Assembly: GCA_963811145.1 (NCBI GenBank)
Contig: CAWEQC010000001.1
Span: 104,144-168,143, forward strand
Direction of reading: 5' to 3'
DNA: 64,000 nucleotides
Source of the DNA: an uncultured Chloroflexia bacterium
GTDB taxonomy: Bacteria; Chloroflexota; Limnocylindria; QHBO01
The notes below the pieces were generated by a model, which saw nothing but the letters and a program-made list of their open reading frames with translations, searched no databases and was not told the origin of the DNA. Shown here piece by piece: positions 1 to 64,000 of this stretch. How positions within the stretch are numbered: position 1 is the first letter of the stretch; each line of letters starts with the position of its first letter. The position numbers were made by a program, and so were the translations under genes.

Positions 1-742
1 CACCTCGGGACTGGGACGAGCCTCCGCCGAGGCGCTGGCCGCCGAGGGCTGCCGCCTCCTCATCTGGTCCCGCGACGAGGCGCGCCTGGCGACCGCAGCC
101 GGCGAGCTCCGCTCGGCGCACGGCGTCGAGGTCGCCCATGTCGCGGCGGATGCGGCCACGCCCGATGCCGCGGCGACCGTCGCGGCGGCCGCCGAGGCGT
201 TCGGGACAATCGACATCGTGGTGACCAATGCGGGTGGACCGCCGACGGTGGATCCAACCGCGACCGATGCCGCCGGATGGCAGCGCACGCTCCAGCTCCT
301 CGCCACGACGCCGATCGAGCTCACGACGCGGCTGCTGCCGGGCATGCGCGAGCGCGGCTGGGGCCGGGTCGTCTCCATCCTGTCGAGCGGCGTTCGCCAG
401 CCGATCCCCGACCTCGTCTACTCGAACGCCGGCCGGTCCGTGCTGGCCGCCTGGCTCAAGACCACGGCGCGGTCGATCGCCGGCGAGGGAGTGACCCTCA
501 ACGGCGTGCTGCCCGGCCGCCTCGCCACGCCGCGCATCCACGAGCTCGACTCGGCGCGGGCCGAGCGCGAGGGGACCTCGGAGGAGGCGGTGCGGGCCGC
601 TCACCTCGCCACCATTCCAGCCGGCCGCTACGGAAGGCCGGAGGAGCTCGGCGCGCTCGTGGCGTTCCTCGCCTCGGAACGCGCGTCCTACGTGACCGGG
701 CAGCTGGTCGCGGTCGACGGAGGGCTCATCGCCGGGTTGTGA
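1..742 (+). CDS. short-chain dehydrogenase/reductase (SDR), 5' end outside window
   Basis: Frame of ORF 218..742 stays open back to base 2 (TSGLGRASAEALAAEG...). Downstream YSNAGRS and GRYGRPEELGALVAFLAS..YVTGQLVAVDGG form a typical SDR C-terminus. Confidence 0.85.
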   Translation, partial: TSGLGRASAEALAAEGCRLLIWSRDEARLATAAGELRSAHGVEVAHVAADAATPDAAATVAAAAEAFGTIDIVVTNAGGPPTVDPTATDAAGWQRTLQLLATTPIELTTRLLPGMRERGWGRVVSILSSGVRQPIPDLVYSNAGRSVLAAWLKTTARSIAGEGVTLNGVLPGRLATPRIHELDSARAEREGTSEEAVRAAHLATIPAGRYGRPEELGALVAFLASERASYVTGQLVAVDGGLIAGL

Positions 743-748
743 GCGGCC

Positions 749-1177
749 TCAACCCACGCGGCGAGGCTCCTCCTCGATCCAGCCCACCTCGACGGCGCCG
801 GCCGCGGCGTCGGTGCTCGAGCCCGGGGCCGCGTCACGCGCGATCCATGACAGCAGCCGATCCGGCCCGACGGCGACGGCCAGGCAGAGCCCGATCATCG
901 CCAGCGGCACGAGGATCGCCTCGCCCGGCGCGCCCGGAATGAGCACGAGCCAGACGGATGCAGCGGCGTACGCCGCGAGGACGACCGACACGCCCGCAAC
1001 GAGACACACCGCCAGCGCCAGTGTTGGAACGGCAGTGAGCGGGAGCTGGCCCGATGCAAACGCGAACACGGCCGCGAACCCTCCGACGCCGGCGGTCAGG
1101 CCGAAGAGCGCACGCACCGCGGCTTCCGCGTCCTCGCCGTACGCGGTTCGCGGGTCGGCTGCCAGGGGCAGGCGCAT
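749..1177 (-). CDS. hypothetical integral membrane protein
   Basis: 142-aa ORF with 3-4 hydrophobic helices, high GC3, fills the gap between neighbours. No recognisable family. Confidence 0.5.
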   Translation of the reverse strand: MRLPLAADPRTAYGEDAEAAVRALFGLTAGVGGFAAVFAFASGQLPLTAVPTLALAVCLVAGVSVVLAAYAAASVWLVLIPGAPGEAILVPLAMIGLCLAVAVGPDRLLSWIARDAAPGSSTDAAAGAVEVGWIEEEPRRVG

Positions 1178-1260
1178 GATCGACCGAGTGTACGCCCGCG
1201 GTGCGATTGCGGCGTGTGGTGTAATCGGCGCTTCCTCGCAGATGACCGGAGCTGAAACCG

Positions 1261-2595
1261 ATGGCGATCGAGACCGAGCGCGGCAGCATGACCGGCGACG
1301 AGATGATCGCCCTCACCAAACGCCACACGCTGTACGAGTGGTCAGCACAGGGCAAGGTCGACCCGATCCCGGTCGCAGGAGCCAAGGGCTCCTACTTCTG
1401 GACCCCCGAGGGCAAGCGGTACCTGGACTTCAACAGCCAGCTGATGTGCGTGAACATCGGGCACGGGCACCCGAAGGTCATCGAGGCCATCGCTCGCCAG
1501 GCCGAGACCCTCGCCTACGCCAACCCGTTCATGGCCACCGAGCCACGCGCGCGACTGGCGGCGAAGCTGGCCGAGATCACGCCCGGCGACATCGACGTGT
1601 TCTTCTTCACCAACGGCGGCGCAGAGGCGAACGAGAACGCCATCAAGCTCGCGCGGTTCTACACCGGGCGCCACAAGATCATGGCCCGATACCGCTCGTA
1701 CCACGGCGGGACGGCCGGAGCGATCACCCTGACCGGTGACCCCCGCCGCTGGGCAGCCGAGCCCGGCATCCCCGGCGTCGTGCACGTGCTCGACCCGTAC
1801 CACGGCATCCAGCGCGGCTGGGACTCCGCCGATGACGCCCTCGCCAACCTCGAGGAGACGATCCAGCTCGAGGGGCCGAGCACCATCGCCGGCTTCATCC
1901 TCGAGACGGTGGTTGGGACCAACGGCGTGCTGGTGCCGCCGGATGGCTACCTGCAGGGCGTCCGCGAGCTCTGCGATCGGTACGGGATCCTGATGATCGC
2001 CGACGAGGTCATGGCGGGCTTCGGACGCACCGGCAAGTGGTTCGCGGTCGACCACTGGGGCGTGGTGCCCGATCTCATCACGATGGCCAAGGGCCTGACC
2101 AGCGCCTACGTCCAGCTGGGTGCCGTGGGCATGCGACGCGAGATCGCCGACAGCTTCAAGGATCGCGTCTTCTACGGCGGCCTCACCTACAACTCCCACC
2201 CGCTGGCATGCGCCACGGCGCTTGCGGCGATCGAGGTTCTCGAGGACGAGGGGCTCATCGAGCGGGCGGCGCGCATGGGCGAGCGCCTGAAGGTCCATCA
2301 CGAGCAGCTGGCGGCGAAGCACCCGAGCGTGGGCGCGACGCGCAGCATCGGCCTGTTCGGAGTGGTCGAACTGGTTCGCAACCGCGAGACGATGGAGCCG
2401 ATGGCCCCGTTCAACGGCACCTCCGACGAGATGGTCGCCCTTGGCAAGCGCTTCCGCGACGAGGGCCTCTACACGTTCACCCGCTGGAACTACTTCCACA
2501 CCAACCCGCCGCTGACAATCAGCGAGGAGGAGCTGGCCGAAGGCTTCGCGATCATCGATCGCGCCCTCGAGATCACCGATGCCGCCGTCGCCTGA
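1261..2595 (+). CDS. class-III (omega-amino acid:pyruvate type) PLP aminotransferase
   Basis: 444 aa. FFTNGGAEANENAIKLAR, DEVMAGFGRTGKWFA and MAKGLTS (PLP lysine region) are typical of the acetylornithine/GABA/omega-aminotransferase family. Confidence 0.9.
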   Translation: MAIETERGSMTGDEMIALTKRHTLYEWSAQGKVDPIPVAGAKGSYFWTPEGKRYLDFNSQLMCVNIGHGHPKVIEAIARQAETLAYANPFMATEPRARLAAKLAEITPGDIDVFFFTNGGAEANENAIKLARFYTGRHKIMARYRSYHGGTAGAITLTGDPRRWAAEPGIPGVVHVLDPYHGIQRGWDSADDALANLEETIQLEGPSTIAGFILETVVGTNGVLVPPDGYLQGVRELCDRYGILMIADEVMAGFGRTGKWFAVDHWGVVPDLITMAKGLTSAYVQLGAVGMRREIADSFKDRVFYGGLTYNSHPLACATALAAIEVLEDEGLIERAARMGERLKVHHEQLAAKHPSVGATRSIGLFGVVELVRNRETMEPMAPFNGTSDEMVALGKRFRDEGLYTFTRWNYFHTNPPLTISEEELAEGFAIIDRALEITDAAVA

Positions 2596-2613
2596 GCCGC
2601 AGGGCCCGGCGGC

Positions 2614-3543
2614 ATGACCGCCGCCGCGCCCGGACTCGCGCGGCCCAGGTTGGTGCGCCCCCGGGTGCGCGGGCTCGGTGGCGTCGCCCGATCGGTGGGT
2701 GCATTCGTGTTGGTGGTCGTTGCACTCGCGCTGGTGTGGGAGCTGGCCAAGGCGATCGGCGGCGTGCCGTGGCGCGACTTCCTGGGCTCGCCGATCGACC
2801 CCCCGTGGGACCCGCCGCTGCGGATCAAGCAGCTCAACGACCAGAACCTGCCGCACGTGTGGGACGTCGCCGCCGCGTTCTTCCAGCCCGCCACCCGCAA
2901 CAGTCCACATTCGCTCGGCGCGGTCCTCATCGATGCGGCCGTCTTCACGGGGCGGAGCGCACTCGCCGGGTTCGTCATCGGCGCCATCTTCGGCACGATC
3001 CTGGCGGTGGTCTTCGTCCACAGCCGCCTGCTCGAGCGGGCGCTGGTGCCGTACGTCATCGCCAGCCAGACCGTGCCGATCGTGGCGCTGGCGCCGATGG
3101 TCGTGCTCTGGATCGGCCGCGACTGGACGAGCGTCGCCCTCGTCAGCGCGTACCTGACCTTCTTCCCGGTCACGATCGCAGGCATCCGTGGCCTTGCCTC
3201 GCCCGATCCGCGAGCGCTGGAGCTGATGCGCAGCTACGCCGCCAGCGCGTGGCGGGTGCTCTGGAAGGTCCGCTTCCCCGCCGCGCTGCCGTACTTCTTC
3301 ACCGCCTTCAAGATCGCGGCCACGGCCAGCGTGGTCGGCGCCATCGTGGGCGAGGAGCCAACCGGCATCCGCGGAGGGCTCGGCCGAGCCATCCTGCAGT
3401 TCAACGAGCAGTACATCACCGGCCCGGAGAAGCTGTGGGCGACCGTCCTCGCCTCGGCTGCACTGGGGATCGTCTTCTTCGCCGCCGTCCGGCTCGCCGA
3501 GCTGCTCGTGCTGCGAAACCGACAGGCGGAGATCGAGGCATGA
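2614..3543 (+). CDS. ABC transporter permease (NitT/TauT-type, BPD_transp_1)
   Basis: 309 aa, 6 TM, conserved loop ELMRSYAASAWRVLWKVRFPAALPYFF. ATGA overlap with the downstream ATPase gene. Confidence 0.85.
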   Translation: MTAAAPGLARPRLVRPRVRGLGGVARSVGAFVLVVVALALVWELAKAIGGVPWRDFLGSPIDPPWDPPLRIKQLNDQNLPHVWDVAAAFFQPATRNSPHSLGAVLIDAAVFTGRSALAGFVIGAIFGTILAVVFVHSRLLERALVPYVIASQTVPIVALAPMVVLWIGRDWTSVALVSAYLTFFPVTIAGIRGLASPDPRALELMRSYAASAWRVLWKVRFPAALPYFFTAFKIAATASVVGAIVGEEPTGIRGGLGRAILQFNEQYITGPEKLWATVLASAALGIVFFAAVRLAELLVLRNRQAEIEA

Positions 3544-4378
3544 CCGATACCGCCGCGGCGATCGTCGATGTCCAGCACATCGACAAGCGATTCGAGGTGG
3601 CCGGATCCACCACCGTTGCGCTGCAGGGCATCGACCTGCGGATCGGCAACCGGCGAGTTCGTCTCCCTCATCGGTCCATCCGGGCTGCGGCAAGAGCACG
3701 CTCCTGCGGCTCATCGCCGACCTGACGTCGCCGTCCGCCGGCGAGATCACGATCAACGGCAAGCCGGCGCGCCGCGCCCGGATGGATCGCGACTACGGGA
3801 TGGTCTTCCAGGCACCGGTCCTCTTCGACTGGCGCACGATCGATGAGAACGTCCAGCTGCCGCTGGAGGTCATGGGGCTGCCGCGAGGCAAGCGGCAGGA
3901 GCGATCGGCGGAGATGCTCTCGCTCGTCGAGCTCGACGACTTTCGCCGCCATCACCCATGGCAGCTGTCGGGCGGCATGCAGCAGCGCGCGGCCATCGCC
4001 CGCGCACTGGCTTTCGAGCCGAAGCTCCTGCTGATGGATGAGCCGTTCGGCGCGCTCGACGAGATGACCCGCGAGCGAATGAACGACGAGCTGCTGCGCA
4101 TCTGGGAGCGAACCGGCACGACGGTCGTGTTCGTCACCCACTCGATCCCGGAGGCAGTCTTCCTGTCGAGCCGCGTAGTGGTCATGAGCGCCCGCCCCGG
4201 CCGGATCACCCACATGGTCGACATCGACCTGCCGCGCCCCCGCAACGAGGCGACGCGCGAGACTGAGCGCTACTTCACGCTCATCACCGAGGTCCGGGAG
4301 GCATTGCGTGCCGGCCACGAGCCGGGTCGGACCGCGGAGCCCATGCTGGAGACCGAGACGGCGGAGCCGGGATGGTGA
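3540..4378 (+). pseudogene. ABC transporter ATP-binding protein (NitT/TauT type) broken by two +1 frameshifts inside Walker A
   Basis: MTDTAAAIVDVQHIDKRFEV..LRIGN is in frame 0, GEFVSLIGPSG in frame +1 and CGKSTLLRLIADL...MVFQ in frame +2. Extra bases lie near 3651 and 3682-3684. The rest is intact: LSGGMQQR, LLLMDEPFGALD, VFVTHS. Confidence 0.8.
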
Positions 4379-5151
4379 CCGACCGACTCCGCCGCTATCT
4401 CCCGGCAATTGCCGTCTTCATTGGCGGCATCGCGCTGTGGGAGCTCATCGTGCGCGGCTTCGACATCGACCGCTTCCTGCTGCCACCGCCGACCGACATC
4501 ATCGGCACGCTCGTCGAGCAATGGCCGCGACTCAGCCAGGCAGGCATCAACACCCTCATCGAGGCCGTCGGCGGATTCGCGATCGGCCTGGCGGCGGGCA
4601 TCGTTGTCGCGCTGGCGACGGCCCGCTTCGTCTTCGCTCGCAGCGCCCTGATGCCGTTCGCCATCGCGGCGAACGCGGTGCCGATCGTCGCCTTCGCGCC
4701 GATCATGAACAACTGGTTCGGCGTCACCAGCCCGGTCTCCAAGATGATGATCGTCGCCGTTCTCGTCTTCTTCCCGGTGATGATCAACACCGTCCGCGGC
4801 CTGCTCAGCGCTGAGCCGGCGGCGCTCGAGATGATGCGCTCCTACGCGGCCAGCGAGGCCCAGACCTTCCTCAAGGTCCGCGTGCCGGCGGCCCTGCCGT
4901 TCTTCTTCACCGCCCTCAAGGTCGGCGCGACCCTGAGCCTGATCGGCGCCATCGTCGGTGAGTACTTCGGTGGGTCGAACCTCGTGCTCGGCCGCGTGAT
5001 CGTGGAGAGCGCCTCGTTCCTTCGATTCAGCGAGGCGTGGGCTGCCATCGTGATCGTCTCGGCGATGGGCATCGGCTTCTATCTCGTCATCCTCGGCATC
5101 GAACGATTGGTCATGCCGTGGCACGCATCGGTCCGCGCGAGCGCCCCCTAG
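4372..5151 (+). CDS. ABC transporter permease (second membrane subunit)
   Basis: 259 aa, paralogous loop EMMRSYAASEAQTFLKVRVPAALPFFFTALK. Overlaps the ATPase stop. Confidence 0.85.
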   Translation: MVTDRLRRYLPAIAVFIGGIALWELIVRGFDIDRFLLPPPTDIIGTLVEQWPRLSQAGINTLIEAVGGFAIGLAAGIVVALATARFVFARSALMPFAIAANAVPIVAFAPIMNNWFGVTSPVSKMMIVAVLVFFPVMINTVRGLLSAEPAALEMMRSYAASEAQTFLKVRVPAALPFFFTALKVGATLSLIGAIVGEYFGGSNLVLGRVIVESASFLRFSEAWAAIVIVSAMGIGFYLVILGIERLVMPWHASVRASAP

Positions 5152-5188
5152 AATGGCGCTTCTTGCGACCAGGCATACGGAGGAAGAA

Positions 5189-6394
5189 ATGAAGCACCCT
5201 TGGCGCGTCTCATCCCTGGTGACCATCGTCGCCCTGCTGCTGGCGGCGTGTGGAACGGGCGGGACCGATACCACTCCATCGGCGGAGGCCACGGCCAGCG
5301 AGCCTGCTGCCAGCGAGCCCGCCGCCACCGCCAGTGAGGCGACCGCCGCCGACGATTGCGGCGCCGAGGCGCTGGGCGGCACGATTCCGGTCGACTTCCA
5401 GCTCCAGTGGGTTCCGCAGGCACAGTTCGCCGGCTACTTCGCCGCCAAGGACCTGGGCTACTACGAGGACGCGGGCCTGGACGTCACGTTCCTCGACGGT
5501 GGCCCGACCATCGCGCCACAGCAAGTCGTCGCCGCAGCCGACGGACCCGAGTTCGGCGAGGGATGGGTCCCCAAGGTGCTGGTTGCACGCGAGGAGGGGG
5601 CTGACCTCGTGAACATCGCGCAGGTCTTCCAGCGCTCGGGAACACTCGAGGTCAGCTGGAAGGACTCCGGCATCACCGAGCCGGCCGACTGGGCGGGCAA
5701 GAAGGTCGGCGCCTGGGGCTTCGGGAACGAGTTCGAGGTGCTTGCCGCGGCACGGCAGGCGGGCCTCGCCGACACCGACTACGAGCGCGTGACCCAGGAC
5801 TTCAACATGGAGCTGCTGCTCAATCGGGAGATCGACGCCGCCGAGGCGATGACCTACAACGAGCTGGCGCAGCTGCTGGAGACCGAGAATCCGGAGACCG
5901 GCGAGCTGTACTCGCTCGATGACCTCAACATCATCGACTTCAACGAAGTCGGCTCCGCGATGCTGCAGGACCACATCATGGCCCGTGAGTCATGGTTGGC
6001 CAGTGACACCGACGGCACGCCCAACGAGGACATTGCCGTCTGCTTCCTGCGCGCTTCGTTCCAGGGCTGGATCCATTGCCGTGACAACCCCGACGAGTGC
6101 GTCGACATCGTCCTCGACCAGGGAACGATCCTCGGCGAGGGGCACCAGCATTGGATGATGAACGAGATCAACGCCCTGATCTGGCCGTCACCCGACGGGA
6201 TCGGAGTGCTTGATCCGGATCTCTGGCAGCAAACCGTGGACATCAGTCTCGAGTTCGACATCCTCACCGCGGAGCCGTCCGACGGTGCGTTCCGCACCGA
6301 CCTCGCGGAGGCGGCGCTGACGGGCATCGACGACGATGTGACCGGCGACGACTTCGAAAAGGACGACATCGAGGTGACGCCCGGAGGCGAATAG
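5189..6394 (+). CDS. ABC substrate-binding lipoprotein (NMT1/THI5-like)
   Basis: Start moved to ATG 5189 behind GGAGGA. Signal peptide MKHPWRVSSLVTIVALLLAAC has a lipobox, followed by a low-complexity linker. The periplasmic domain resembles the NitT/TauT SBP family. Confidence 0.8.
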   Translation: MKHPWRVSSLVTIVALLLAACGTGGTDTTPSAEATASEPAASEPAATASEATAADDCGAEALGGTIPVDFQLQWVPQAQFAGYFAAKDLGYYEDAGLDVTFLDGGPTIAPQQVVAAADGPEFGEGWVPKVLVAREEGADLVNIAQVFQRSGTLEVSWKDSGITEPADWAGKKVGAWGFGNEFEVLAAARQAGLADTDYERVTQDFNMELLLNREIDAAEAMTYNELAQLLETENPETGELYSLDDLNIIDFNEVGSAMLQDHIMARESWLASDTDGTPNEDIAVCFLRASFQGWIHCRDNPDECVDIVLDQGTILGEGHQHWMMNEINALIWPSPDGIGVLDPDLWQQTVDISLEFDILTAEPSDGAFRTDLAEAALTGIDDDVTGDDFEKDDIEVTPGGE

Positions 6395-6420
6395 ACCGAT
6401 CCGGTCCACCGCATGATCGC

Positions 6421-6450
6421 GGCCCCTCTCCGATCCGTCGGGGAGGGGCC
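6421..6450 (+). terminator. candidate terminator hairpin after the ABC importer operon
   Basis: GGCCCCTCTCC-gatccgtc-GGGGAGGGGCC, 11-bp stem with one mismatch, 27 nt after the SBP stop. No U-tract. Confidence 0.4.
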
Positions 6451-6524
6451 GTTCACGTGCCGCCCGGTATCATCGGGCTCATGCCGCCGACGACGCTCCG
6501 CGCCGCCGACTGCCGGTCGATGGA

Positions 6525-8189
6525 ATGACCGGCCTGGGGTTCACACTGCTCGTCGCCCTGGCGGCGGCGCTCGTGCTCGGCGCGCTGGCGCATCGGCTCA
6601 GGTTGCCGCCGATGCTCGGCTACATCGCGGCCGGCATGGCGGTCGGCCCGTTCACGCCCGGCTTCGTCGCCGACCGCGAGGAGGTGCTGGCGCTGGCCGA
6701 CATCGGCGTCGCGCTCCTCATGTTCAGCATCGGCCTCCAGTTCAGCCTTGGCGAGCTGCGGGCGGTCGGCGGACGCATCCTTGCCGGCGTCCCGGTCCAG
6801 GTGGCGCTCACGATGGCGATCGGCACCGCCACCGGACTGGCCCTGGGATGGGAGCTGATCGAGGCGCTGTTCATCGGCGGGGCGGTGTCGGTGGCATCGA
6901 CCGTCGTGCTGGTCAAGGTGGCCGGCGAGGCGACGCTGCACACCACGACCCACGGGAAGACCGCGCTCGGCGTGTCGATCGTCCAGGACCTGCTCACCGT
7001 GGTGCTTGTCGTCGCCCTTTCTGCGCTGGGCAGCCGCGCCGAGGAGTCGTGGGTCGCGCTGGTGGGTGCCGGCGTGGTGGCGATCGGTTTCGTGGCGTTC
7101 GTGATCGTCGCCGGCTCCCGGGTCCTTCCACCGCTCCTGGGATTCATCGCCGCGCTGCGTTCGCGAGAGCTGTTCGTGATCGCCGTGGCGGTGATCGCCA
7201 TCGGCACCGCCTTCGCGGCCGGGGCGCTCGGGGTGAGCGTGGCGCTCGGGGCATTCGTCGCCGGACTGGCGCTCGCCGACTCCGACCTGACGGCCAGCGT
7301 GCTTGGCGAGATCGTGCCGCTCCGCGAGCTGTTCAGCACGTTCTTCTTCGTGTCGGTCGGCATCCTCCTCCAGCCGACGGCCATCCTGGCCGCATGGCCG
7401 GTGGTGCTGGCCCTCCTGCTGATCATCACCTTCGGCAAGGCATTGCCGATCGCCGGCCTTGCGCTGCTCGACGGCAAATCGCCCTCGACAGCCCTTCGCG
7501 CCGGCGCGCTGATCGGCCAGAGCGGGGAGTTCAGCTTCGTGCTGGCCTCGGCGGGGCTCACGCTCGGCGCGGTCAGCCCTGACTCGTTCTCGCTGGCCAT
7601 GGGCGCCGTCGTCATCTCGATCCTCACCGCCGAGCCGCTCCACGCCGCCGCGCGCTGGATCGGTCCTCACCTGGACGCCGCCGTGCCGCGCGCGGCCCCG
7701 GCCGGCGACGAGCCGCTCAACGTCGGCCTGCGACGGCACGCCGTCATCCTCGGTTACGGGCGGGTCGGTCGGTCGGTGGCCCGGGTCCTGGATTCACGCG
7801 GCTTCGGCTGGGTGGCCATCGACAGCGACTACGGCGTCACCCGCGAGGCGCGCGCCGGCGGTGCGCCGGTCATCTACGGCGAGGCCGGCACGCCGTCGGT
7901 CCTCGATCAGGCCGCCGTGGCCGATGCGCACGCAATGGTGGTGTGCGTGCCCGATGCCCTCGCCTCGCGCCAGGCGGTCGTCTACGCGCGGGACCGGAAC
8001 CCGCGGATCGAGATCGTCGCGCGCGCCCACTCCGATGCCGAGGAGCACGATCTCCGCCGGCTCGGGGCGACGCGGGTGATCCTCGCCGAACGGGAGCTCG
8101 GCAACGAGATGATTCGGCACGCACTGCGCCGCTTCGGCGTCAGCGACCGGGAGGTCGCCGCCATCCTGGAGGCACGCCGCCGAGCGTAG
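6525..8189 (+). CDS. monovalent cation:proton antiporter with C-terminal TrkA-N domain (Kef/YbaL type)
   Basis: 554 aa. About 12 TM Na+/H+-exchanger-like region, then a Rossmann motif HAVILGYGRVGRSVARVL. Confidence 0.85.
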   Translation: MTGLGFTLLVALAAALVLGALAHRLRLPPMLGYIAAGMAVGPFTPGFVADREEVLALADIGVALLMFSIGLQFSLGELRAVGGRILAGVPVQVALTMAIGTATGLALGWELIEALFIGGAVSVASTVVLVKVAGEATLHTTTHGKTALGVSIVQDLLTVVLVVALSALGSRAEESWVALVGAGVVAIGFVAFVIVAGSRVLPPLLGFIAALRSRELFVIAVAVIAIGTAFAAGALGVSVALGAFVAGLALADSDLTASVLGEIVPLRELFSTFFFVSVGILLQPTAILAAWPVVLALLLIITFGKALPIAGLALLDGKSPSTALRAGALIGQSGEFSFVLASAGLTLGAVSPDSFSLAMGAVVISILTAEPLHAAARWIGPHLDAAVPRAAPAGDEPLNVGLRRHAVILGYGRVGRSVARVLDSRGFGWVAIDSDYGVTREARAGGAPVIYGEAGTPSVLDQAAVADAHAMVVCVPDALASRQAVVYARDRNPRIEIVARAHSDAEEHDLRRLGATRVILAERELGNEMIRHALRRFGVSDREVAAILEARRRA

Positions 8190-59336: not shown

Positions 59337-59573
59337 ATGGAGCTCATCGAACCAACCACCACGCCTCGCCGCGACTTCTCGCTGTACTCGGTGCGCGAGG
59401 GGCGGCTGGTGCCCGTGACCTGCGTGTCATGCGGCTGCCGCCTCGAGATGCACGCCGATGGCAGCTGGTGGCACTTCGCCGGACGAGGAAATCGGGATGC
59501 GCGAGGCTGCATCGTGGATTGCGCCGAGCGGCCGCACTACGCGCCCGGAGGCATCGCCGAAGCCCTCGCCTGA
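59337..59573 (+). CDS. small Cys-rich protein (78 aa), hypothetical
   Basis: MELIEPTT...VTCVSCGCRLEMHADGSWWHFAGRG..GCIVDCAERPHY. CxxC plus CxxxC suggests a zinc ribbon. High GC3 and a leaderless promoter geometry. 17 nt upstream of ppc. Confidence 0.55.
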   Translation: MELIEPTTTPRRDFSLYSVREGRLVPVTCVSCGCRLEMHADGSWWHFAGRGNRDARGCIVDCAERPHYAPGGIAEALA

Positions 59574-59589
59574 TTCGGGCGGGCGGCCC

Positions 59590-62343
59590 GTGACCCGGCA
59601 ACGGGACGCGGGCGAGGCAGCGCGACGCGCCGAGCCGAGAGGCATCGGCAGCGCCGGCGCACGTGATCCGCTTGCCCGCGAGGTCAAGCTGCTCGGCGCC
59701 CTGCTGGGACAGGTGATCGTCGAGCAGGAGGGCCCCGAGCTCTTCGAGCTGGTCGAGCAGCTGCGCCGGGCGGCCATCCGCGGCCGTCGCGCCGGTCCGG
59801 AGGAGACGATCGAAGGGGCGCTCCACGCGCTCGACGGCCGCTCCGCCACCGAGCTCCTGGCTGTGGCCCGGGCCTTCACCGCCTACTTCCTGCTGATCAA
59901 CCTGGCCGAGGAGAAGCATCGGCTGCGGACGCTGCGGAAGCGCGAGCGGTCGAGCCGGCGGGCGCCATTGGCCGATGGCATCGGCGACGCCATCCTTCGC
60001 CTACGCCGGGACGGCATGTCGCGCGAGGACGTGCGCGCGCTGGCGCATCGCATGCGCCTGATGCCCGTGCTGACGGCCCACCCCACCGAGGCCCGACGCC
60101 GCACGGTGCTGGTGGCGCAGCGGCGGCTGTACCGGCTCCTCGATCGGTTCGACGATCCGCGCCTGACCCGCTCGGAGGACCGCGAGCTGCGGCGGCGCCT
60201 TCGCGAGGAGATCAGCCTGCTCTGGCAGACGAGCGCCGTGCGCGCCCAGCGGCCGACGCCGCTCGACGAGGTGCGGGCCGCGATGGTCTTCTTCGACGAG
60301 ACGCTCTTCGCCGTCACGCCGCGGCTGTATCGGGCCCTGCAGGACACCATCGGCGGAACCGACACCGATGCGGTCGCGGAGCCGTACCTGCGCTGGGGCT
60401 CCTGGATCGGGAGCGATCGCGATGGCCATCCCGGCGTGACCGCCGAGGTCACCCGCCGGACGATCCGGATCCAGGCCGACCACATCCTGCGCGGCTACCA
60501 CAACGTGCTCGAGCGCCTGCAGCAGGCGATCGCCATCTCGGATGAGCAGGCAGGCGTGCCGGACGACTACCGGCGCGAGGTCGCTCAGATGGGCAGGCTC
60601 TTCCCCCGGGTTCGCGCCGACCTCGAGCGGCGCTTCGGCGGCCAGAGCTATCGGCAGGCGCTGGGGATCATCGGCGAGCGGATCGACCGCACGCGGGCCC
60701 GGCTGGTCGGAGGCTCCGGCATCCGTCGGGGTGGATACGAGTCGCCTGCGGAGCTGCTGACCGACCTGCGCCGGATGCAGGACTCGCTCCGCCGCCACGG
60801 AGCCGATCGCGTGGCGGCCGGCGAGGTCCAGGATCTCCTGTGGCAGGTCGAGACGTTCGGATTCCACCTCGCCTCGCTGGAGGTTCGGCAGCACGCCGAC
60901 GTGCACACGGCCGCGCTGGAGCGCCTGCGTTCGGGCCGATCGGCGGACGAGCCGGTCGATGCGTCGGGGGTGACACTCAACGAGGTCCTCGCCACGTTGC
61001 GGACGCAGCGTGAGATCGGCCTCGCTCTTCGGCCCGGAGGCTTCACGCCGCTACATCATCAGCTTCACGCGCGCATCCGACGGACGCGACCGGCCTGCTC
61101 GAGCTGGCTCGCCGCGGCGGTGCCCGACGTCCGCCTTCGGAATGGCTCGACGTCGTGCCACTGCTCGAGACCCGCGAGGAGCTGGAGAGCGCCAGCCGGT
61201 TCCTCGAGGAGCCTGTTCGCGCGACCCGGCGCTATCGGTCCCATCTCGACGGGTCGGGGCATGCGCCAGGAGGTGATGCTCGGCTACTCGGACTCGAACA
61301 AGGAGTCGGGCTACCTGTCGGCAGCCTGGAACCTGCATCGGGCCCAGGAGGGCCTGGTCGGCGGCGGCGCGCAAGCACGGCGTCGAGCTGACCCTGTTCC
61401 ATGGGCGTGGCGGCACCATCGGTCGCGGGGGCGGGCCGGCCAACCGGGCGGTCCTGGCGCAGGCGGCCGGATCGGTCGACGGCAGGCTCAAGCTGACCGA
61501 GCAGGGCGAGGTGATCGCCGAGCGCTACCCGAGCCCGCAGATCGCGCAGCGGCACCTGGAGCAGATGACGAACGCGCTGCTGCTGAGCTCGCGGCCCGGC
61601 CATGACGAATCGACCGCCGACCAGCTCGACCGATGGCGGCCGATGATGACCGAGCTGGTCGCGCTGGCCGAGGACGCCTACCGGCGCCTCGTCTGGGAGG
61701 ATCCCGACTTCGAGGCCTTCTTCGTCGGGGCCACGCCGATCGCGGAGATCAGCCGCATGGAGCTCGGCTCGCGGCCCGGCCCGACGGGCGGCCGCCGCGC
61801 CGTCGCTGGCCTCCCTGCGCGCGATCCCGTGGACCTTCGCCTGGGCGCAGAGCCGCACCAACCTGCCGGCGTGGTACGGCGTCGGAGCGGCGCTGGCCGG
61901 GTATCTCGAGCGTCACGGCGCCGCATGGTCGCGATCAGCTGGCGACGGCGTACCGCGAGTGGGCCTTCTTCAGCTCGATCATCGACAACGTCGAGCTCGG
62001 GCTGGCCATCGCCGACCCGGTCGTGGCGGCGCGCTACGCCGGCCTGGCCGGCACCGATGAGCCGATGCGCCGCATCGCCGAGACCCTGCGCGCGGAGCGG
62101 GCACGGACGGAGGACGAGGTGCTGCGCCTGACCGGCAGCGCGCGGCTGCTCGACCGCAGCCCGCGCCTCCAACGCAGCGTCGAGCTTCGGACGCCGTACG
62201 TGGATGTCCTCTCCGAGCTCCAGGTGCGCGGGCTCTCGCGCCTGCGCGGCTCTACGCTCGCCGCCGATGAGCGCGCCGCCACCGAGCGCCTCCTGCAGCT
62301 GACGGTCAGCGGCCTGGCGGCCGGACTCCAGCACACCGGTTGA
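59590..62343 (+). pseudogene. ppc: phosphoenolpyruvate carboxylase, about eight frameshifts in the 3' third
   Basis: VLTAHPTEARRRT is in one frame up to about 61020. [100 protein letters not shown] and the C-terminal ...GLQHTG* alternate between frames. Junctions lie near 61022, 61081, 61212, 61228, 61259, 61352, 61778 and 61919. Confidence 0.85.
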
Positions 62344-62368: not shown

Positions 62369-63089
62369 ATGACCGACGCGCCGCAGAAGACCGCCATCGT
62401 CACCGGCGCCGCCGCCGGCATCGGCCGCGCGACCGTCGAACGGCTGCTTGCCGATCGGCTGGCGGGTGGTCGGCATCGACCGAAACGCGGCGAGCGTCGA
62501 CGGTGCCGAGATGCTGGTGGGCGACGCGGGCGACGAGCCGATGCTGGTCGCCGCGCTCAAGATCTGCGGCGGCTCCCTGGACGCGCTGGTCTGCTCGGCC
62601 GGCATCCCGCCCTCGGGTCCATGGGAGAGCCGCGAGCACTGGGACGAGGTCGTCGCCGTCGACCTCACGGCTCCCTACGAGGCGCTGCGTGTCTGCATGG
62701 CCCGCGCTCGGTCGCCGCCGGCGGCTCCGCGGTGCTGGTCGGCAGCATCGTCGGTGCGGTTGAGGGCTCGCTCCGTTCGCCCGCCTATGCCGCCGCCAAG
62801 GCCGGGCTCGAGGGGCTGGCGCGCTCGATGGCCGTCATCGGCGGACCGGATGGCGTGCGCGTCAACGTCGTCGCGCCCGGCGCCATCGCCACCGACTTCG
62901 ACGAGCGGCTGCTGCCCGCGGACCACCGGACCGACGTGCCGCTCGGCCGCATGGGGACCGCCGATGAGGTCGCCGCCGTCATCGGCTTCCTCATCGGTCC
63001 GGATGCTTCGTACGTCACGGGCGCCGTGTGGACCGTCGACGGCGGAAGGATCGCCTCTCGACCGCCGATGCAGAACGATGCGGCGATAG
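62369..63089 (+). pseudogene. short-chain dehydrogenase/reductase, two or three frameshifts, 3' end uncertain
   Basis: TAIVTGAAAGIGRATVERLLAD | GWRVVGIDRN... | ...GGSAVLVGSIVG..YAAAKAGLEGL..VTGAVWTVDGG. Junctions near 62456 and 62709. The nominal ORF continues to 63316 only by reading through AT-enriched non-coding DNA. Confidence 0.7.
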
Positions 63090-63157
63090 ACCGTTTCAGG
63101 AAGTTCGAGTTGCGGCGCTGGCAACTATCGGCCATTGAAGCGCCAAAGCCAGGCTCA

Positions 63158-63245
63158 GATTGGCCGGCGCTTGCGCCGGCAACAACATGCGGGCAGGTTG
63201 AGCACCTTGATTGGCTGTTAGTTGCGCTTCGGGCAAAGGTGCCGG
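63158..63245. repeat. intergenic repeat element, copy D
   Basis: GATTGGCCGG box, palindrome GCCGGCGC-TT-GCGCCGGC and exact 16-mer TGGCTGTTAGTTGCGC (63212-63227). Aligns with 49776-49863 and 56227-56313. Confidence 0.6.
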
Positions 63246-63250
63246 TACCG

Positions 63251-63279
63251 TTGACATCGGTCCATGCGGGGGATAGGCT
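63251..63279 (+). promoter_or_regulatory. candidate promoter TTGACA-N17-TAGGCT for the aroF leader
   Basis: Perfect -35, 17-nt spacer, TANNNT -10. The -10 ends 10 nt before the leader-peptide ATG. Confidence 0.5.
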
Positions 63280-63289
63280 CCGCAATCCA

Positions 63290-63316
63290 ATGTCACAGAT
63301 GTGGTTTTACGGCTAG
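63290..63316 (+). CDS. leader peptide MSQMWFYG (aromatic amino acid attenuator)
   Basis: ATG TCA CAG ATG TGG TTT TAC GGC TAG. Consecutive Trp-Phe-Tyr codons, with promoter and terminator flanking. Confidence 0.6.
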   Translation: MSQMWFYG

Positions 63317-63370
63317 CGGGTACGAGGCAGGCGAGTAGATCTCGCCGGCGCAGGCACTCGTGCCCGCAGA

Positions 63371-63403
63371 CGCAGGAAGCGAAAGCTCCTGCGTTTTTTG
63401 TTT
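63371..63403 (+). terminator. intrinsic terminator of the aroF leader (attenuator)
   Basis: CGCAGGAAGC-GAAA-GCTCCTGCG (9 bp, one bulged A, GNRA loop) followed by TTTTTTGTTT. Lies 46 nt upstream of the aroF ATG. Confidence 0.65.
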
Positions 63404-63449
63404 CCCCGATGCGGATCGGGGCAGGGAGCGAAAGGCGCGGCAGGAATCG

Positions 63450-64000
63450 ATGATCGTGGTGATGCGTCCGACGGCGACGCAGGAAGAGGTCGACGGGGTC
63501 AGGCGCACCGTCGAGGAGCACGGGCTCGAGGCGTTCTTGAGCGTGGGCGAGGAGCGGACCGTGATCGGCGTCGTCGGCAGCGACATCGATCGGGTCTCGC
63601 ACCTCGGGACGCTGCCGGGCGTCGAGCAGGTGATCCGCATCAGCTCGCCCTACAAGCTGGCCAGCGCCGCGCACCAGCCCGAACGGACAAGGGTGCGCGC
63701 CAACGGCGTCGAGCTGGGGATGGGCCAGGAGCTGGTCGTCATGGCCGGACCATGCGCGGTCGAGTCGCGCGAGCAGCTGATGGAGACGGCCCGATGCGTC
63801 AAGCGCGAGGGTGCCCGCGTCCTTCGCGGCGGCGCCTTCAAGCCGCGCACCTCGCCCTACTCGTTCCAGGGGCTCGGGCTGCCTGCCCTGCGGCTCCTGC
63901 ACGAGGCGCATGACACCTACGGCCTGCCCGTCATCAGCGAGGTCGTCGATCCTGCCGACGTCCCGGCCTTCGAGGAGCACATCGACATCATCCAGGTCGG
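63450..64000 (+). CDS. aroF: 3-deoxy-7-phosphoheptulonate (DAHP) synthase, type I-beta with N-terminal ferredoxin-like regulatory domain; 3' end outside window
   Basis: MIVVMRPTATQEEVDGV...ERTVIGVVG (regulatory domain), then VVMAGPCAVESREQLMETA...LRGGAFKPRTSPYSFQGLG...IIQVG. Colinear with Thermotoga/Bacillus-type DAHPS. Not in the ORF track because there is no stop codon in the window. Confidence 0.9.
   Translation, partial: MIVVMRPTATQEEVDGVRRTVEEHGLEAFLSVGEERTVIGVVGSDIDRVSHLGTLPGVEQVIRISSPYKLASAAHQPERTRVRANGVELGMGQELVVMAGPCAVESREQLMETARCVKREGARVLRGGAFKPRTSPYSFQGLGLPALRLLHEAHDTYGLPVISEVVDPADVPAFEEHIDIIQV

Follow-up and report, generated by a model that had tools for sequence, protein, structure and literature searches.

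The DAHP synthase gene of an uncultured Limnocylindria bacterium, which encodes the first step of aromatic amino acid synthesis, is preceded by a mini-ORF (MSQMWFYG), a hairpin and a terminator, and we propose that this leader is very probably a ribosome-mediated transcription attenuator of the aromatic (aro) operon. This reading is based on the sequence of a 64,000-nt stretch of DNA (hereafter the window), on RNA folding and on comparison with relatives. The leader has a short 5′ ORF in which codons for the pathway's end products are enriched, and a predicted intrinsic terminator between this ORF and the first structural gene; no antiterminator helix was found to form on stalling. What our analysis establishes is which parts make up the element, that these are conserved and spaced at fixed distances, and that they are linked exclusively to DAHP synthase.

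Layout of the leader and its promoter

Direct reading of the sequence located every part named in a first-pass annotation of this DNA (Table 1), and its central claim, that of a leader-peptide element that has its own promoter together with a terminator and controls DAHP synthase, is supported. These parts include a TTGACA-N17-TAGGCT promoter (63251-63279), the boxes and spacing of which are conserved across 113 sequences, a GGCGAG/CTCGCC hairpin (63330-63346), three CGCAG copies (found at 63349, 63365 and 63371) and the terminator CGCAGGAAGC-GAAA-GCTCCTGCG-TTTTTTGTTT (63371-63403). The 125-nt leader folds with a free energy of -55.3 kcal/mol (z = -4.46 against 200 shuffles), and no second copy of it was found in the 64-kb window. 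There are frameshift errors nearby in the assembly, and homopolymer lengths close to the leader may therefore be slightly wrong. The upstream SDR ORF (62369..63316) runs on in frame with the leader peptide; this run-on is incidental, and a meaningful in-frame link between the two was rejected, since relatives do not keep it.

Table 1 Features of the leader region, with window coordinates, strand and basis or remarks
Feature	Position	Strand	Basis or remarks
-35 box TTGACA	63251..63256	+	sequence reading; alignment
-10 box TAGGCT, TAnnnT type	63274..63279	+	sequence reading; alignment
Leader ORF ATG TCA CAG ATG TGG TTT TAC GGC TAG (MSQMWFYG)	63290..63316	+	sequence reading
Sensor codons TGG (Trp), TTT (Phe), TAC (Tyr), codons 5-7	63302..63310	+	
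P1 5′ arm, GCGGGTACGAG plus GC	63316..63328	+	pairs with 63348-63349 and 63357-63367
P2 hairpin, GGCGAG, loop TAGAT, CTCGCC	63330..63346	+	folding
Internal loop GCAGGCA	63350..63356	+	contains most of the first CGCAG copy of the first-pass annotation
P1 3′ arm, CTCGTGCCCGC	63357..63367	+	folding, covariation
Predicted intrinsic terminator, stem AGACGCAGGA-AGC / GCT-CCTGCGTTT, loop GAAA, tail TTTTTTGTTT	63368..63403	+	
aroF 5′ UTR	63404..63449	+	variable small GC hairpin (63404-63421), then purine-rich ribosome-binding region
DAHP synthase, 5′ part (type I-beta, N-terminal ferredoxin-like domain)	63450..64000	+	truncated by window end

In an alignment (A4) of 113 sequences, the -35 box reads TTGACA in 91 and TTGAC[GT] in 20 further sequences, and 110 of the 113 have 17-18 nt between it and the -10 box (17 nt in the window). 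The -10 box of the window matches TATAAT at three of six positions; across the alignment its A and its final T are invariant and the middle bases vary. The leader start codon follows the -10 box by 9-14 nt (10 nt in the window), so the leader 5′ UTR is probably just ~2-7 nt long. Upstream of the ORF, a Shine-Dalgarno-like tetramer is absent in 100 of the 113 sequences, and with no ribosome-binding site translation would have to be, and probably is, leaderless-like. Because a simple promoter/terminator scanner reported nothing for the leader region, conservation was used for the promoter and folding for the terminator; we take the bulged stem to be the reason why the scanner missed the terminator.

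Sensor codons

The leader ORF is in frame with its stop codon in all 113 family members, and the first ATG is kept in its column in 106, the remainder having a nearby GTG start, while the second ATG is not conserved and reads CAG in relatives L193, L098, L121 and L208. The three sensor codons of the window begin 14, 11 and 8 nt upstream of the hairpin P1, and codons at these positions are aromatic in 96%, 81% and 100% of the 113 leaders, compared with 0-3% for the next two codons and an aromatic codon background of 5.6% in the window. In 107/113 sequences, 8 nt separate the start of the last aromatic codon from P1. At the sensor positions TGG, TTC, TTT, TAC and TAT swap freely across the family, which comprises 88 distinct leader peptides, each of ~8-13 codons. 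Judged from this comparison, the aromatic class of the codon is the selected feature, held at fixed positions across all 88 peptides.

The first-pass annotation had argued that the Trp, Phe and Tyr codons matter, and this agrees with an aromatic class that is kept in place while the codons themselves interchange. Its narrower reading of one Trp, one Phe and one Tyr codon fits the subtype of the window but fails for many relatives, which have Phe-Tyr-Phe without Trp, the triplet of the commonest type B relatives. The rarity of TTT that it had pointed out is real, with 7 TTT against 336 TTC codons in high-GC3 reading frames of the window (TTT = 2%), and this rare codon is preferred in the leaders of the family. 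The stop codon starts at -2 relative to P1 in 30 sequences, including the window, and at +7 in 75 (together 105/113), placements at which an unstalled ribosome at the stop codon would invade P1.

Hairpins, terminator and downstream region

P1, which the first-pass annotation had missed, is an 11-bp stem (63316-63326 with 63357-63367) that encloses the small hairpin P2 and starts with the final base of the stop codon; by themselves, P1 and P2 fold with -32.8 kcal/mol. The sequence of P1 is very conserved within each subtype, and two of its pairs are G-C in the type of the window (32 sequences) and C-G in type B (80-81). The stem of P2 reads GGCGGG/CCCGCC in L088 and GGTGGG/CCCACC in L091 and occurs in 67 distinct versions in the family, which identifies P2 as a hairpin of free sequence. 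The internal loop likewise varies (GCAGAGGCA, GCAAGAUGA, GGGGCAC and others). An extension of P1 through pairing of the last codons with the linker was rejected, since linkers differ in both length and sequence.

The terminator hairpin has a predicted free energy of -17.8 kcal/mol, and the T-run at 63394-63399 is the sole run of at least five T on either strand of the 64-kb window. Its stem begins 0-3 nt past P1 in 111/113 sequences, and the two structures have no bases in common. Terminator stems covary, with compensatory changes within the family. Across P1 and the terminator, 95.7% of alignment cells are paired, whereas shuffles give 83.1 ± 0.5% and slid partners 36-45%; ten pairs have changes on both sides. 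Within these figures, much of the P1 covariation reflects one split between the two subtypes, and the search pattern itself had fixed parts of P1 and of the terminator. The motif TCGTGCC in the P1 3′ arm was itself fixed by that pattern, and its invariance across the family is therefore uninformative.

The aroF 5′ UTR is 29-55 nt long, with a mean identity of 68% and a conserved GAGCGRARAGGC motif, and the aroF ATG of the window lies at 63450, 46 nt past the T-rich tail. Positions 63421-63435 are a near repeat of the 5′ arm and loop of the terminator.

A leader family in Limnocylindria

Using an RNA-only search pattern from which the mini-ORF was left out, we recovered 114 distinct copies in more than 100 genomes, nearly all of them uncultured Candidatus Limnocylindria (Chloroflexota). 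DAHP synthase follows on the same strand, 25-142 nt past the T-run, in 109/114 copies; the other 5 loci end before that point, and all 109 loci with enough downstream sequence carry the gene. The search of relatives for aromatic mini-ORFs before aroF that the first-pass annotation had suggested thus found both the mini-ORF and the terminator conserved. Among 13 genomes, the leader RNA is 97.9% identical, with 85% identity for aroF coding DNA, 70% for the promoter spacer region and 68% for the aroF 5′ UTR. The diverged type B form was recovered independently by a covariance model, upstream of DAHPS genes with 51% identity at the protein level.

Matches to the AroF fragment carry the domains PF18152 and PF00793, and in relatives, L091 among them, the operon order is FXD-DAHPS-CM_2, aroA, aroC, aroK-aroB and pheA. 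The matches listed in the AroF-fragment protein search are relatives of 44-55% identity, which served as outgroups and classical controls. At least five other phyla have aromatic-rich leader ORFs and terminators upstream of the same type of DAHPS. In no part of the window did an Rfam family attain its gathering score, and a search with E up to 10 gave only Atu_C8; the family described here therefore fills a missing annotation. No T-box match was obtained for positions 62900-63700, even at E up to 10, and we judged the 125-nt element too small for a T-box.

Alternative explanations

In a classical three-hairpin attenuator, as envisaged by the first-pass annotation, stalling would free a strand, for example the upstream CGCAGG to pair with CCUGCG, and an RNA antiterminator would replace the terminator. 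Pairing of this kind is available in the window, where GGCGCAGGC (63347-63355) can pair with UCCUGCGUU (-12.4 kcal/mol), and classical aromatic leaders precede the same enzyme in Acidobacteriota and Desulfobacterota. However, the competing CGCAG hairpin would still end at the U-run and falls short of the terminator by ~9 kcal/mol, most relatives do not keep the upstream CGCAGG copy and have GCAGAGGCA or another sequence there, and a scan for helices shared by 85% or more of the sequences turned up none involving the terminator 5′ arm, leaving no conserved helix to compete with the terminator. Instead of exchanging with an antiterminator, the terminator remains folded at every ribosome position imposed on the fold, both in the window and in all 113 members; the mean probability of its central pair is 0.97-0.99 with a free ORF as well as with one blocked up to or into P1, equilibrium values of limited power that missed some leaders of other phyla which we take as classical. 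A nascent-transcript test was added for this reason, and it separates the controls from the Limnocylindria family: with a stalled ribosome, upstream pairing of the terminator 5′ arm is 0.01 in all 113 members, compared with 0.8-1.0 in the classical controls from other phyla, which have 0.04-0.25 at the stop codon. From the sequence data, we regard the classical arrangement as very improbable and largely refuted.

Two further candidate helices were rejected. One joins the P1 5′ arm (GCGGG) and the terminator 3′ arm (CCUGC); it comprises 5 bp, occurs in type A only and is absent in type B. Pairing of the aromatic codons with the terminator 5′ arm (P0) needs ribosome-free RNA if it is to act as an antiterminator, is weak here and shows no covariation. 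No pairing other than P0 touches the terminator 5′ arm, and P0 alone would give the wrong logic.

P0 would be central to a translation-sensing switch, in which ribosome-free U-rich codons pair with the purine-rich terminator 5′ arm, stacked on P1, and block termination; any ribosome on the ORF would restore termination, and the aromatic codons would be a by-product of the need for a U-rich strand. Nascent RNA without a ribosome does show upstream pairing of the 5′ arm (mean 0.64, with 87/113 above 0.5), and P0 reaches about -12 kcal/mol in subfamily B1 (22 sequences, 8-nt linker). Set against this, P0 has only -3.6 kcal/mol in the window and -4.5 in type A, compared with about -17.5 for the terminator, it is no stronger than with shuffled ORF bases (-6.6 vs -6.7), and it does not covary, the 5′ arm remaining GCAGAGG for any codons. 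U-richness also leaves unexplained the codon-phased aromatic class, which includes the G-rich TGG, and the conservation of the start and stop codons, and P0 alone would confer no amino acid specificity. Such a switch has a slim chance of being the main device, although P0 may coexist as a branch through which the absence of a ribosome leads to read-through.

If P1-P2 were instead a binding site, whether as a metabolite riboswitch, for a TRAP- or PyrR-like protein, or as a put-like antiterminator RNA that binds the polymerase itself, the ORF would be secondary. High conservation of P1 within subtypes would fit a binding site, and a polymerase-modifying RNA would explain read-through without a competing helix. 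Yet the invariance of the P1 3′ arm is due to the search pattern, the P2 loop and the internal loop, which are the unpaired parts available to a ligand or protein, vary freely while P2 itself exists in 67 versions, and P1-P2 contains no repeated motif. We found no conserved, ORF-independent unpaired ligand pocket, no Rfam family at threshold and no Rfam riboswitch match, and a binding site would account for neither the codon-phased aromatic signature nor the fixed 8-nt register, which makes this explanation highly improbable. An independent trans-acting sRNA gene that just happens to adjoin aroF is extremely improbable. Its attraction is that Rfam files Atu_C8 (RF02502), the closest likeness to the leader, as an sRNA, with a full-length match of 29.7 bits (E = 8.7e-4), a value below the gathering score of 50 and hence short of membership. 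As the consensus of Atu_C8 itself opens with a reading frame rich in Ile/Leu/Val, it too is probably an attenuator. The link to DAHP synthase is moreover exclusive, on the same strand and at 25-142 nt, and past the terminator there is neither room for nor sign of a separate aroF promoter. Since an attenuator-derived leader RNA can act in trans, as does rnTrpL of Sinorhizobium (PMC6614838), a trans role could exist alongside attenuation, not in its place.

Proposed mechanism of attenuation

For attenuation by a ribosome on the leader ORF, we infer the direction of control and a block of termination by P1 as follows. The promoter would start the transcript a few bases before the 8-codon ORF. When charged aromatic tRNAs are plentiful, the ribosome would reach the stop codon, which abuts P1 in the window and sits inside P1 in most relatives, P1 would be unwound, and the terminator would act, releasing a leader RNA of ~110 nt. 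Scarcity of Trp-, Phe- or Tyr-tRNA would leave the ribosome waiting with one of the sensor codons in its A site; its front edge would just meet the foot of the intact P1, and the polymerase would read through into the operon.

As P1 and the terminator have no bases in common, we tentatively propose that their coupling is steric, an idea based on geometry and on analogy with E. coli, and one that we hold as possible, at somewhat less than even chances. While P1 is folded, a free path of 8-14 nt plus 0-3 nt remains. The intact P1 and the stalled ribosome would then lie too near the first pair of the terminator for its last pairs to close in the exit channel of the polymerase, whereas unwinding of P1 would free ~50 nt of single strand and lift the block. 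In the E. coli terminator tR2, moving a stop codon that stood 28 nt before the terminator to 5 nt before it lowered termination from ~90% to <10%, and the authors estimated that 10-15 nt of free RNA are required between the A site and the hairpin (PMC4824070). The fixed geometry of the family suggests P1's state as the signal and a steric mode of action for it.

Taken as a whole, the leader could be a two-hairpin attenuator that dispenses with an RNA antiterminator, in which P1-P2 is a delay line adding time but not distance and termination is blocked sterically; we put this complete model forward as a possibility about which we are more doubtful than confident. The delay of P1-P2 would give a ribosome time to load on the near-leaderless 8-codon ORF, and P1-P2, while folded, would keep a stalled ribosome at a distance of 8-14 nt plus 0-3 nt from the terminator's foot.

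Relation to known systems

To our knowledge, leader-peptide attenuation of DAHP synthase is known from few cases only. The classical enterobacterial trpL, pheL and hisL leaders have a promoter-proximal ORF rich in codons for the pathway product, a terminator and overlapping 1:2, 2:3 and 3:4 hairpins. The Limnocylindria leader shares with them the ORF with product codons, the terminator before the first gene and a stop codon that reaches the next RNA segment. Unlike them, it has a P1 without bases in common with the terminator, no antiterminator in the stalled state, and a much shorter ORF, not preceded by a Shine-Dalgarno sequence, with a single codon for each amino acid rather than runs. The leaders of other phyla (L044 and L061 of Acidobacteriota; L013, L034 and L048 of Desulfobacterota; L043 of Methylomirabilota) resemble the Limnocylindria leader in the enzyme (type I-beta DAHP synthase), the amino acids sensed and the short distance from -10 box to ATG, but they have ~20-30 codons, many of them aromatic, and an antiterminator of -10 to -23 kcal/mol when stalled that is lost at the stop codon. 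In the pyrBI and pyrE attenuators, a nearby ribosome represses the terminator and the signal is UTP. Both of these and tR2 are like the proposed mechanism in that a ribosome near the foot of the terminator stops termination without a competing helix; there the ribosome is near in linear sequence, whereas the Limnocylindria leader would use a folded 52-nt hairpin and an amino acid signal.

The first-pass annotation had named a precedent from Corynebacterium, and such a leader does exist in C. glutamicum, where aroR, a Phe-Tyr-Phe leader before aroF, is described as raising operon transcription through stalling, in response to Phe but not Tyr limitation (PMC11802643, citing Neshat 2014). Both aroR and the window have a leader peptide with consecutive aromatic residues before a DAHP synthase operon, and the aroR triplet is that of the commonest type B relatives; aroR is from another phylum, the peptide of the window has only 8 codons and includes Trp, and the likeness is one of description only. 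The uORFC-13-1 motif of Acholeplasma is reported as a predicted short uORF that has promoter boxes, a minimum of one Phe codon and a terminator next to it, and that occurs only before aroF (PMC8632094). According to that account it is likewise known from comparative analysis only and belongs to AT-rich Mollicutes, with a U-run coding for Phe in place of the Trp/Phe/Tyr triplet of the window; the part of the report drawn on here describes neither a fixed register nor a two-hairpin layout. Mycobacterial leaderless polycysteine ORFs are reported to sense one amino acid by ribosome pausing (bioRxiv 10.1101/834739; Canestrari et al. 2020). As there described, they are like the Limnocylindria leader in that a very short ORF at the start of the transcript or close to it controls the downstream operon, but they act on structures that hide the ribosome-binding site of the next gene, whereas the conserved output of the Limnocylindria leader is an intrinsic terminator.

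The closest likeness in layout is Atu_C8, an sRNA of Rhizobiales that aligns over its full length with 63285-63409 and has the same succession of a short reading frame, a long hairpin enclosing a small hairpin, and a terminator. Its reading frame is rich in Ile/Leu/Val where that of the window is aromatic, and the resemblance is one of architecture, which does not count as evidence of homology. If the two-hairpin model is true, Atu_C8 may be a second example, and the layout may be a general minimal attenuator.

Significance

Its strict sensor register, the adjacency of P1 and terminator and the lack of a competing helix make the leader a clean natural test case, and the family allows one to test whether a stalled ribosome or a neighbouring helix can disable an intrinsic terminator by position alone. 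With its promoter the whole element is only ~150 bp long and, if it works in a host, it could be a compact sensor of three aromatic aminoacyl-tRNA pools. Limnocylindria are an abundant, uncultured class of soil and freshwater, and this large, well-sampled family (114 copies, 88 peptides) provides a first handle on their gene regulation.

Architecture of the aroF leader

The aromatic leader-peptide region preceding aroF, the gene for DAHP synthase (DAHPS), was described in the first-pass annotation as a promoter, a mini-ORF, a small hairpin, CGCAG copies and a terminator, all of which, like the aroF start codon, were recovered in place. The remark that TTT is a rare Phe codon here also held, with 7 TTT vs 336 TTC in a codon count of the window. 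Overlooked was P1, a long stem after the leader ORF that encloses the small hairpin (P2). The 125-nt leader has a folding energy of −55.3 kcal/mol (z = −4.46), and P1-P2 on its own and the terminator hairpin reach −32.8 and −17.8 kcal/mol, respectively.

Features of the aroF leader region in window coordinates
Feature	Position	Strand	Remarks
−35 box TTGACA	63251-63256	+	Read from sequence; 17-nt spacer to −10 box
−10 box TAGGCT	63274-63279	+	Read from sequence; TAnnnT type; 10 nt to ATG
Leader ORF ATG TCA CAG ATG TGG TTT TAC GGC TAG	63290-63316	+	Read from sequence
P1, 11-bp stem	63316-63326 with 63357-63367	+	Encloses P2; begins at last base of stop codon
P2 hairpin GGCGAG/CTCGCC	63330-63346	+	Read from sequence
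CGCAG copies	63349, 63365, 63371	+	Read from sequence
Terminator CGCAGGAAGC-GAAA-GCTCCTGCG-TTTTTTGTTT	63371-63403	+	Read from sequence
aroF start ATG	63450	+	Read from sequence

The terminator T-run (63394-63399) is the sole run of at least 5 T on either strand of the whole 64-kb window, and U-tract terminators at gene ends therefore seem to be very rare in this genome. A simple promoter/terminator scanner reported neither a promoter nor a terminator for the leader; we take a bulge in the terminator stem to be the reason for the missed terminator. Within the aroF 5′ UTR, 63421-63435 (GCAGGGAGCGAAAGG) is a near copy of the terminator 5′ arm and loop at 63372-63386 (GCAGGAAGCGAAAGC), and an GAGCGRARAGGC motif is conserved in relatives. 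The terminator 3′ arm and U-run can pair with a purine-rich region of this UTR (−15.8 kcal/mol) that probably holds the ribosome-binding site, which hints at a second, translational layer of control in the read-through RNA.

Conservation across genomes

The element is real and strongly conserved. It was found in 4 of 4 ENA contigs and, by a 22-nt pattern, in 8 species-representative genomes; across 13 copies the leader RNA outside the pattern-fixed bases has a mean identity of 97.9%, the first 450 nt of aroF 85.0%, the promoter spacer region 70% and the aroF 5′ UTR 68%, with compensatory P2 changes in two relatives (L088, L091). A covariance model built from these first copies picked up a diverged form, type B, at loci L033 and L075, where DAHPS is just 51% identical at the protein level. 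Its layout is the same as that of the window's form (type A), and its peptide reads M-x-x-x-Phe-Tyr-Phe-Arg-Cys-Pro-Ala, with the stop codon inside the P1 5′ arm. A search pattern comprising the P1 3′ arm and terminator only, and thus blind to the ORF, returned at least 119 loci (10 chance matches were discarded). Pooling with the earlier copies brought the total to at least 114 distinct leaders, almost all of them Limnocylindria sequences; among the matches listed, DAHP synthase begins 25-142 nt after the T-run in 109/114, and in the remaining five the sequence ends before any gene is visible. Three members (L134, L159, L164) come from bins that bear the labels Eisenbacteria, Verrucomicrobiia and Dormibacterota, which suggests mis-binning or else joint lateral transfer of the leader and the aro operon.

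Among the matches listed, 113 leaders were aligned (A4). At the −35 box, 91 of these carry TTGACA and another 20 TTGAC(G/T); 110 have a spacer of 17-18 nt, and the −10 box follows (T/C)AnnnT with invariant A and last T. No Shine-Dalgarno-like tetramer precedes the leader ORF in 100/113. Transcription usually starts 6-8 nt after the −10 box and the start codon lies 9-14 nt after it, so the leader 5′ UTR would be ~2-7 nt long, implying leaderless-like initiation of translation.

The leader ORF as a probable aromatic sensor

With codons counted from the first base of P1, the codon starting at −8 is aromatic in 100% of the A4 leaders (TTT 70, TAC 30, TAT 13), that at −14 in 96% (TTC 50, TGG 34, TAT 15, TAC 9, TTT 1), and those at −11 and −17 in 81% and 48%; at −5 and −2 the proportion is 0-3%, against an aromatic codon background of 5.6%. 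At least 88 different peptides are encoded, type A including MSQMWFYG, MT[YFQ]QWFYG, MTRYWYFS, MTRNFWFYA, MKSFFWFYA and MTNFFWYYV, in which the aromatic class is constant and order and codons vary. Selection on Trp/Phe/Tyr decoding, and not on mere U-richness, would predict such a codon pattern. The first ATG is kept and several relatives have CAG in place of the second, therefore the window peptide has 8 residues, not 5. The stop codon starts at −2 relative to P1 in type A and at +7 in type B.

RNA structure and the search for an antiterminator

RNAalifold recovered P1 and the terminator from A4, with 95.7% paired cells vs 83.1 ± 0.5% in column shuffles, falling to 36-45% when partners were slid by 1-3 columns, and with both-sided changes at 10 pairs. 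TCGTGCC.G, GCAG and CTGC.TTTTT were set by the search pattern, so their constancy in the family was imposed. The covariation in P1 is mostly one split between types A and B; P2 and the inner stems of the terminator have changed repeatedly and independently, P2 occurring in 67 versions among the matches listed.

The first-pass reading of the region as an attenuator stands, but the switch it proposed, in which CGCAG copies pair alternatively with the CCUGCG arm, fails: the upstream copy is not conserved among relatives, and no conserved competing helix was found. When the window RNA was blocked up to any ribosome position, the terminator stayed in the minimum-energy structure. No helix shared by 85% or more of the A4 sequences engages the terminator 5′ arm, and the mean probability of the central terminator pair over the 113 members is 0.97-0.99, be the ORF left free or blocked as far as P1 or into it. 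Because equilibrium probabilities can overlook kinetic switches, and missed some presumed-classical aromatic leaders of other phyla, we also folded nascent RNA ending just before the terminator 3′ arm. In six leaders of other phyla (L044, L061, L013, L034, L048, L043) the 5′ arm was then paired upstream at 0.8-1.0 with a stalled ribosome and at 0.04-0.25 with one at the stop codon, vs 0.01 for a stalled ribosome in the window's family; the antiterminator in these controls is worth −10 to −23 kcal/mol.

Upstream pairing of the 5′ arm in the window's family was confined to a ribosome-free ORF (mean 0.64), the partner being the aromatic codons (P0; −3.6 kcal/mol in the window, −4.5 in type A, about −12 in one longer-linker subfamily). 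As the antiterminator P0 was rejected, being no better than shuffled ORF bases and showing no covariation; it may add a branch in which the lack of a ribosome leads to read-through. By function we class the element among leader-peptide attenuators, no conserved antiterminator having been found in its family.

Gene neighbourhood

In a protein database search the closest AroF fragments belonged to Chloroflexota, class Candidatus Limnocylindria. Four long ENA contigs share the order PEP carboxylase, short-chain dehydrogenase, DAHP synthase, EPSP synthase and chorismate synthase. Downstream of the leader in L091, a cleaner relative, come a FXD-DAHPS-chorismate mutase gene, aroA, aroC, an aroK-aroB fusion and pheA (717-7769), and the element thus heads a large aromatic operon. 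The relatives' DAHP synthase is a three-domain protein in which an N-terminal ferredoxin-like domain precedes the catalytic barrel and a type II chorismate mutase forms the C terminus.

The upstream PEP carboxylase (59458-62343) and dehydrogenase (62369-63089) genes are each broken by apparent frameshifts, likely long-read indel errors and not pseudogenes; genes of the ENA relatives L081-L084 are fragmented likewise, DAHPS included. Just upstream of the type B leaders of L095 and L033, the place of the dehydrogenase gene seen in the window is taken by two tRNA genes on the opposite strand (L095 1426-1620 and L033 845-1040; minus strand). At eight loci belonging to Dormibacterota or to Chloroflexota of other classes (L002, L011, L015, L026, L031, L053, L066, L073), neither a leader ORF nor a terminator was seen in the 260 nt before DAHPS, and the attenuator therefore accompanies DAHPS as the first gene of an operon. 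At several of these the sequence as far as the start of DAHPS reads as the 3′ end of an upstream gene which, on visual inspection, we take for an aroH-type chorismate mutase.

Comparison with known systems

In Corynebacterium glutamicum, aroF is known to be under leader-peptide control, with a Phe-Tyr-Phe aroR peptide (PMC11802643), and such control is predicted in Acholeplasma (uORFC-13-1; PMC8632094). In Actinobacteria, a 2005 survey turned up no RNA element linked to Phe or Tyr genes, and aro genes go unmentioned in a 2010 attenuator survey. Aromatic-rich leader ORFs of ~20-30 codons followed by terminators (such as MFGTDASSFWYFTYRYWGFAPSR and MGIFFYYYYYWYFGQVCPWLEREVR) lie 150-320 nt upstream of the same DAHP synthase type in Acidobacteriota, Desulfobacterota, Methylomirabilota, Calditrichota and Verrucomicrobiota (L001, L013, L014, L019, L021, L034, L039, L043, L044, L048, L058, L061); most have a classical antiterminator, and 0 of 10 searched match an Rfam family.

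No Rfam family covers the window's element. Its sole resemblance is a full-length, sub-threshold match of 63285-63409 to RF02502, the Rhizobiales sRNA Atu_C8 (29.7 vs 50 bits). The consensus of that family opens with AUG AUU AUU CUU GUG GUG, ~5 nt after which come a long hairpin enclosing a smaller one and then a terminator; the codons are for Ile/Leu/Val instead of Trp/Phe/Tyr. Atu_C8 therefore looks, from its sequence, like an Ile/Leu/Val leader-peptide attenuator of the same layout and not a plain sRNA.

Proposed mechanism

What the family keeps in place of a competing helix is spacing. Among the matches listed, the last aromatic codon begins at −8 relative to P1 in 107/113 leaders, and the terminator stem, counted with its A/G extension (paired to the U-run), begins 0-3 nt past P1 in 111/113. 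Established ribosome footprints indicate that mRNA can remain base-paired from ~8 nt beyond the first nucleotide of the codon in the A site, a distance that equals the spacing between slippery sites and frameshift-stimulating structures. A ribosome awaiting Tyr-tRNA at TAC would thus be in contact with an intact P1, and one waiting at TTT or TGG would sit 3 or 6 nt further back; at the stop codon, a ribosome would have unwound at least half of P1 or, in type B, all of P1 and part of P2. Given this footprint and the fixed codon register, the state of P1 would report ribosome passage over the aromatic codons.

As P1 and the terminator have no bases in common, any coupling between them has to be spatial. 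When P1 is folded, 8-14 nt plus 0-3 nt of free RNA separate the A site from the first base pair of the terminator. At E. coli tR2, moving a stop codon from 28 to 5 nt upstream lowered termination from ~90% to <10%, and the authors estimated that 10-15 free nt are required (PMC4824070). We propose that a ribosome stalled at the foot of folded P1-P2 would block closure of the last terminator pairs, and that unwinding of P1 would give ~50 nt of slack, allowing the terminator to act; the P1-P2 hairpin could also gain time for ribosome loading on so short an ORF. This steric coupling would fit every conserved feature and the expected logic, and we advance it tentatively, at somewhat below an even chance of being correct. 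If it is true, the element would be the more interesting for it.
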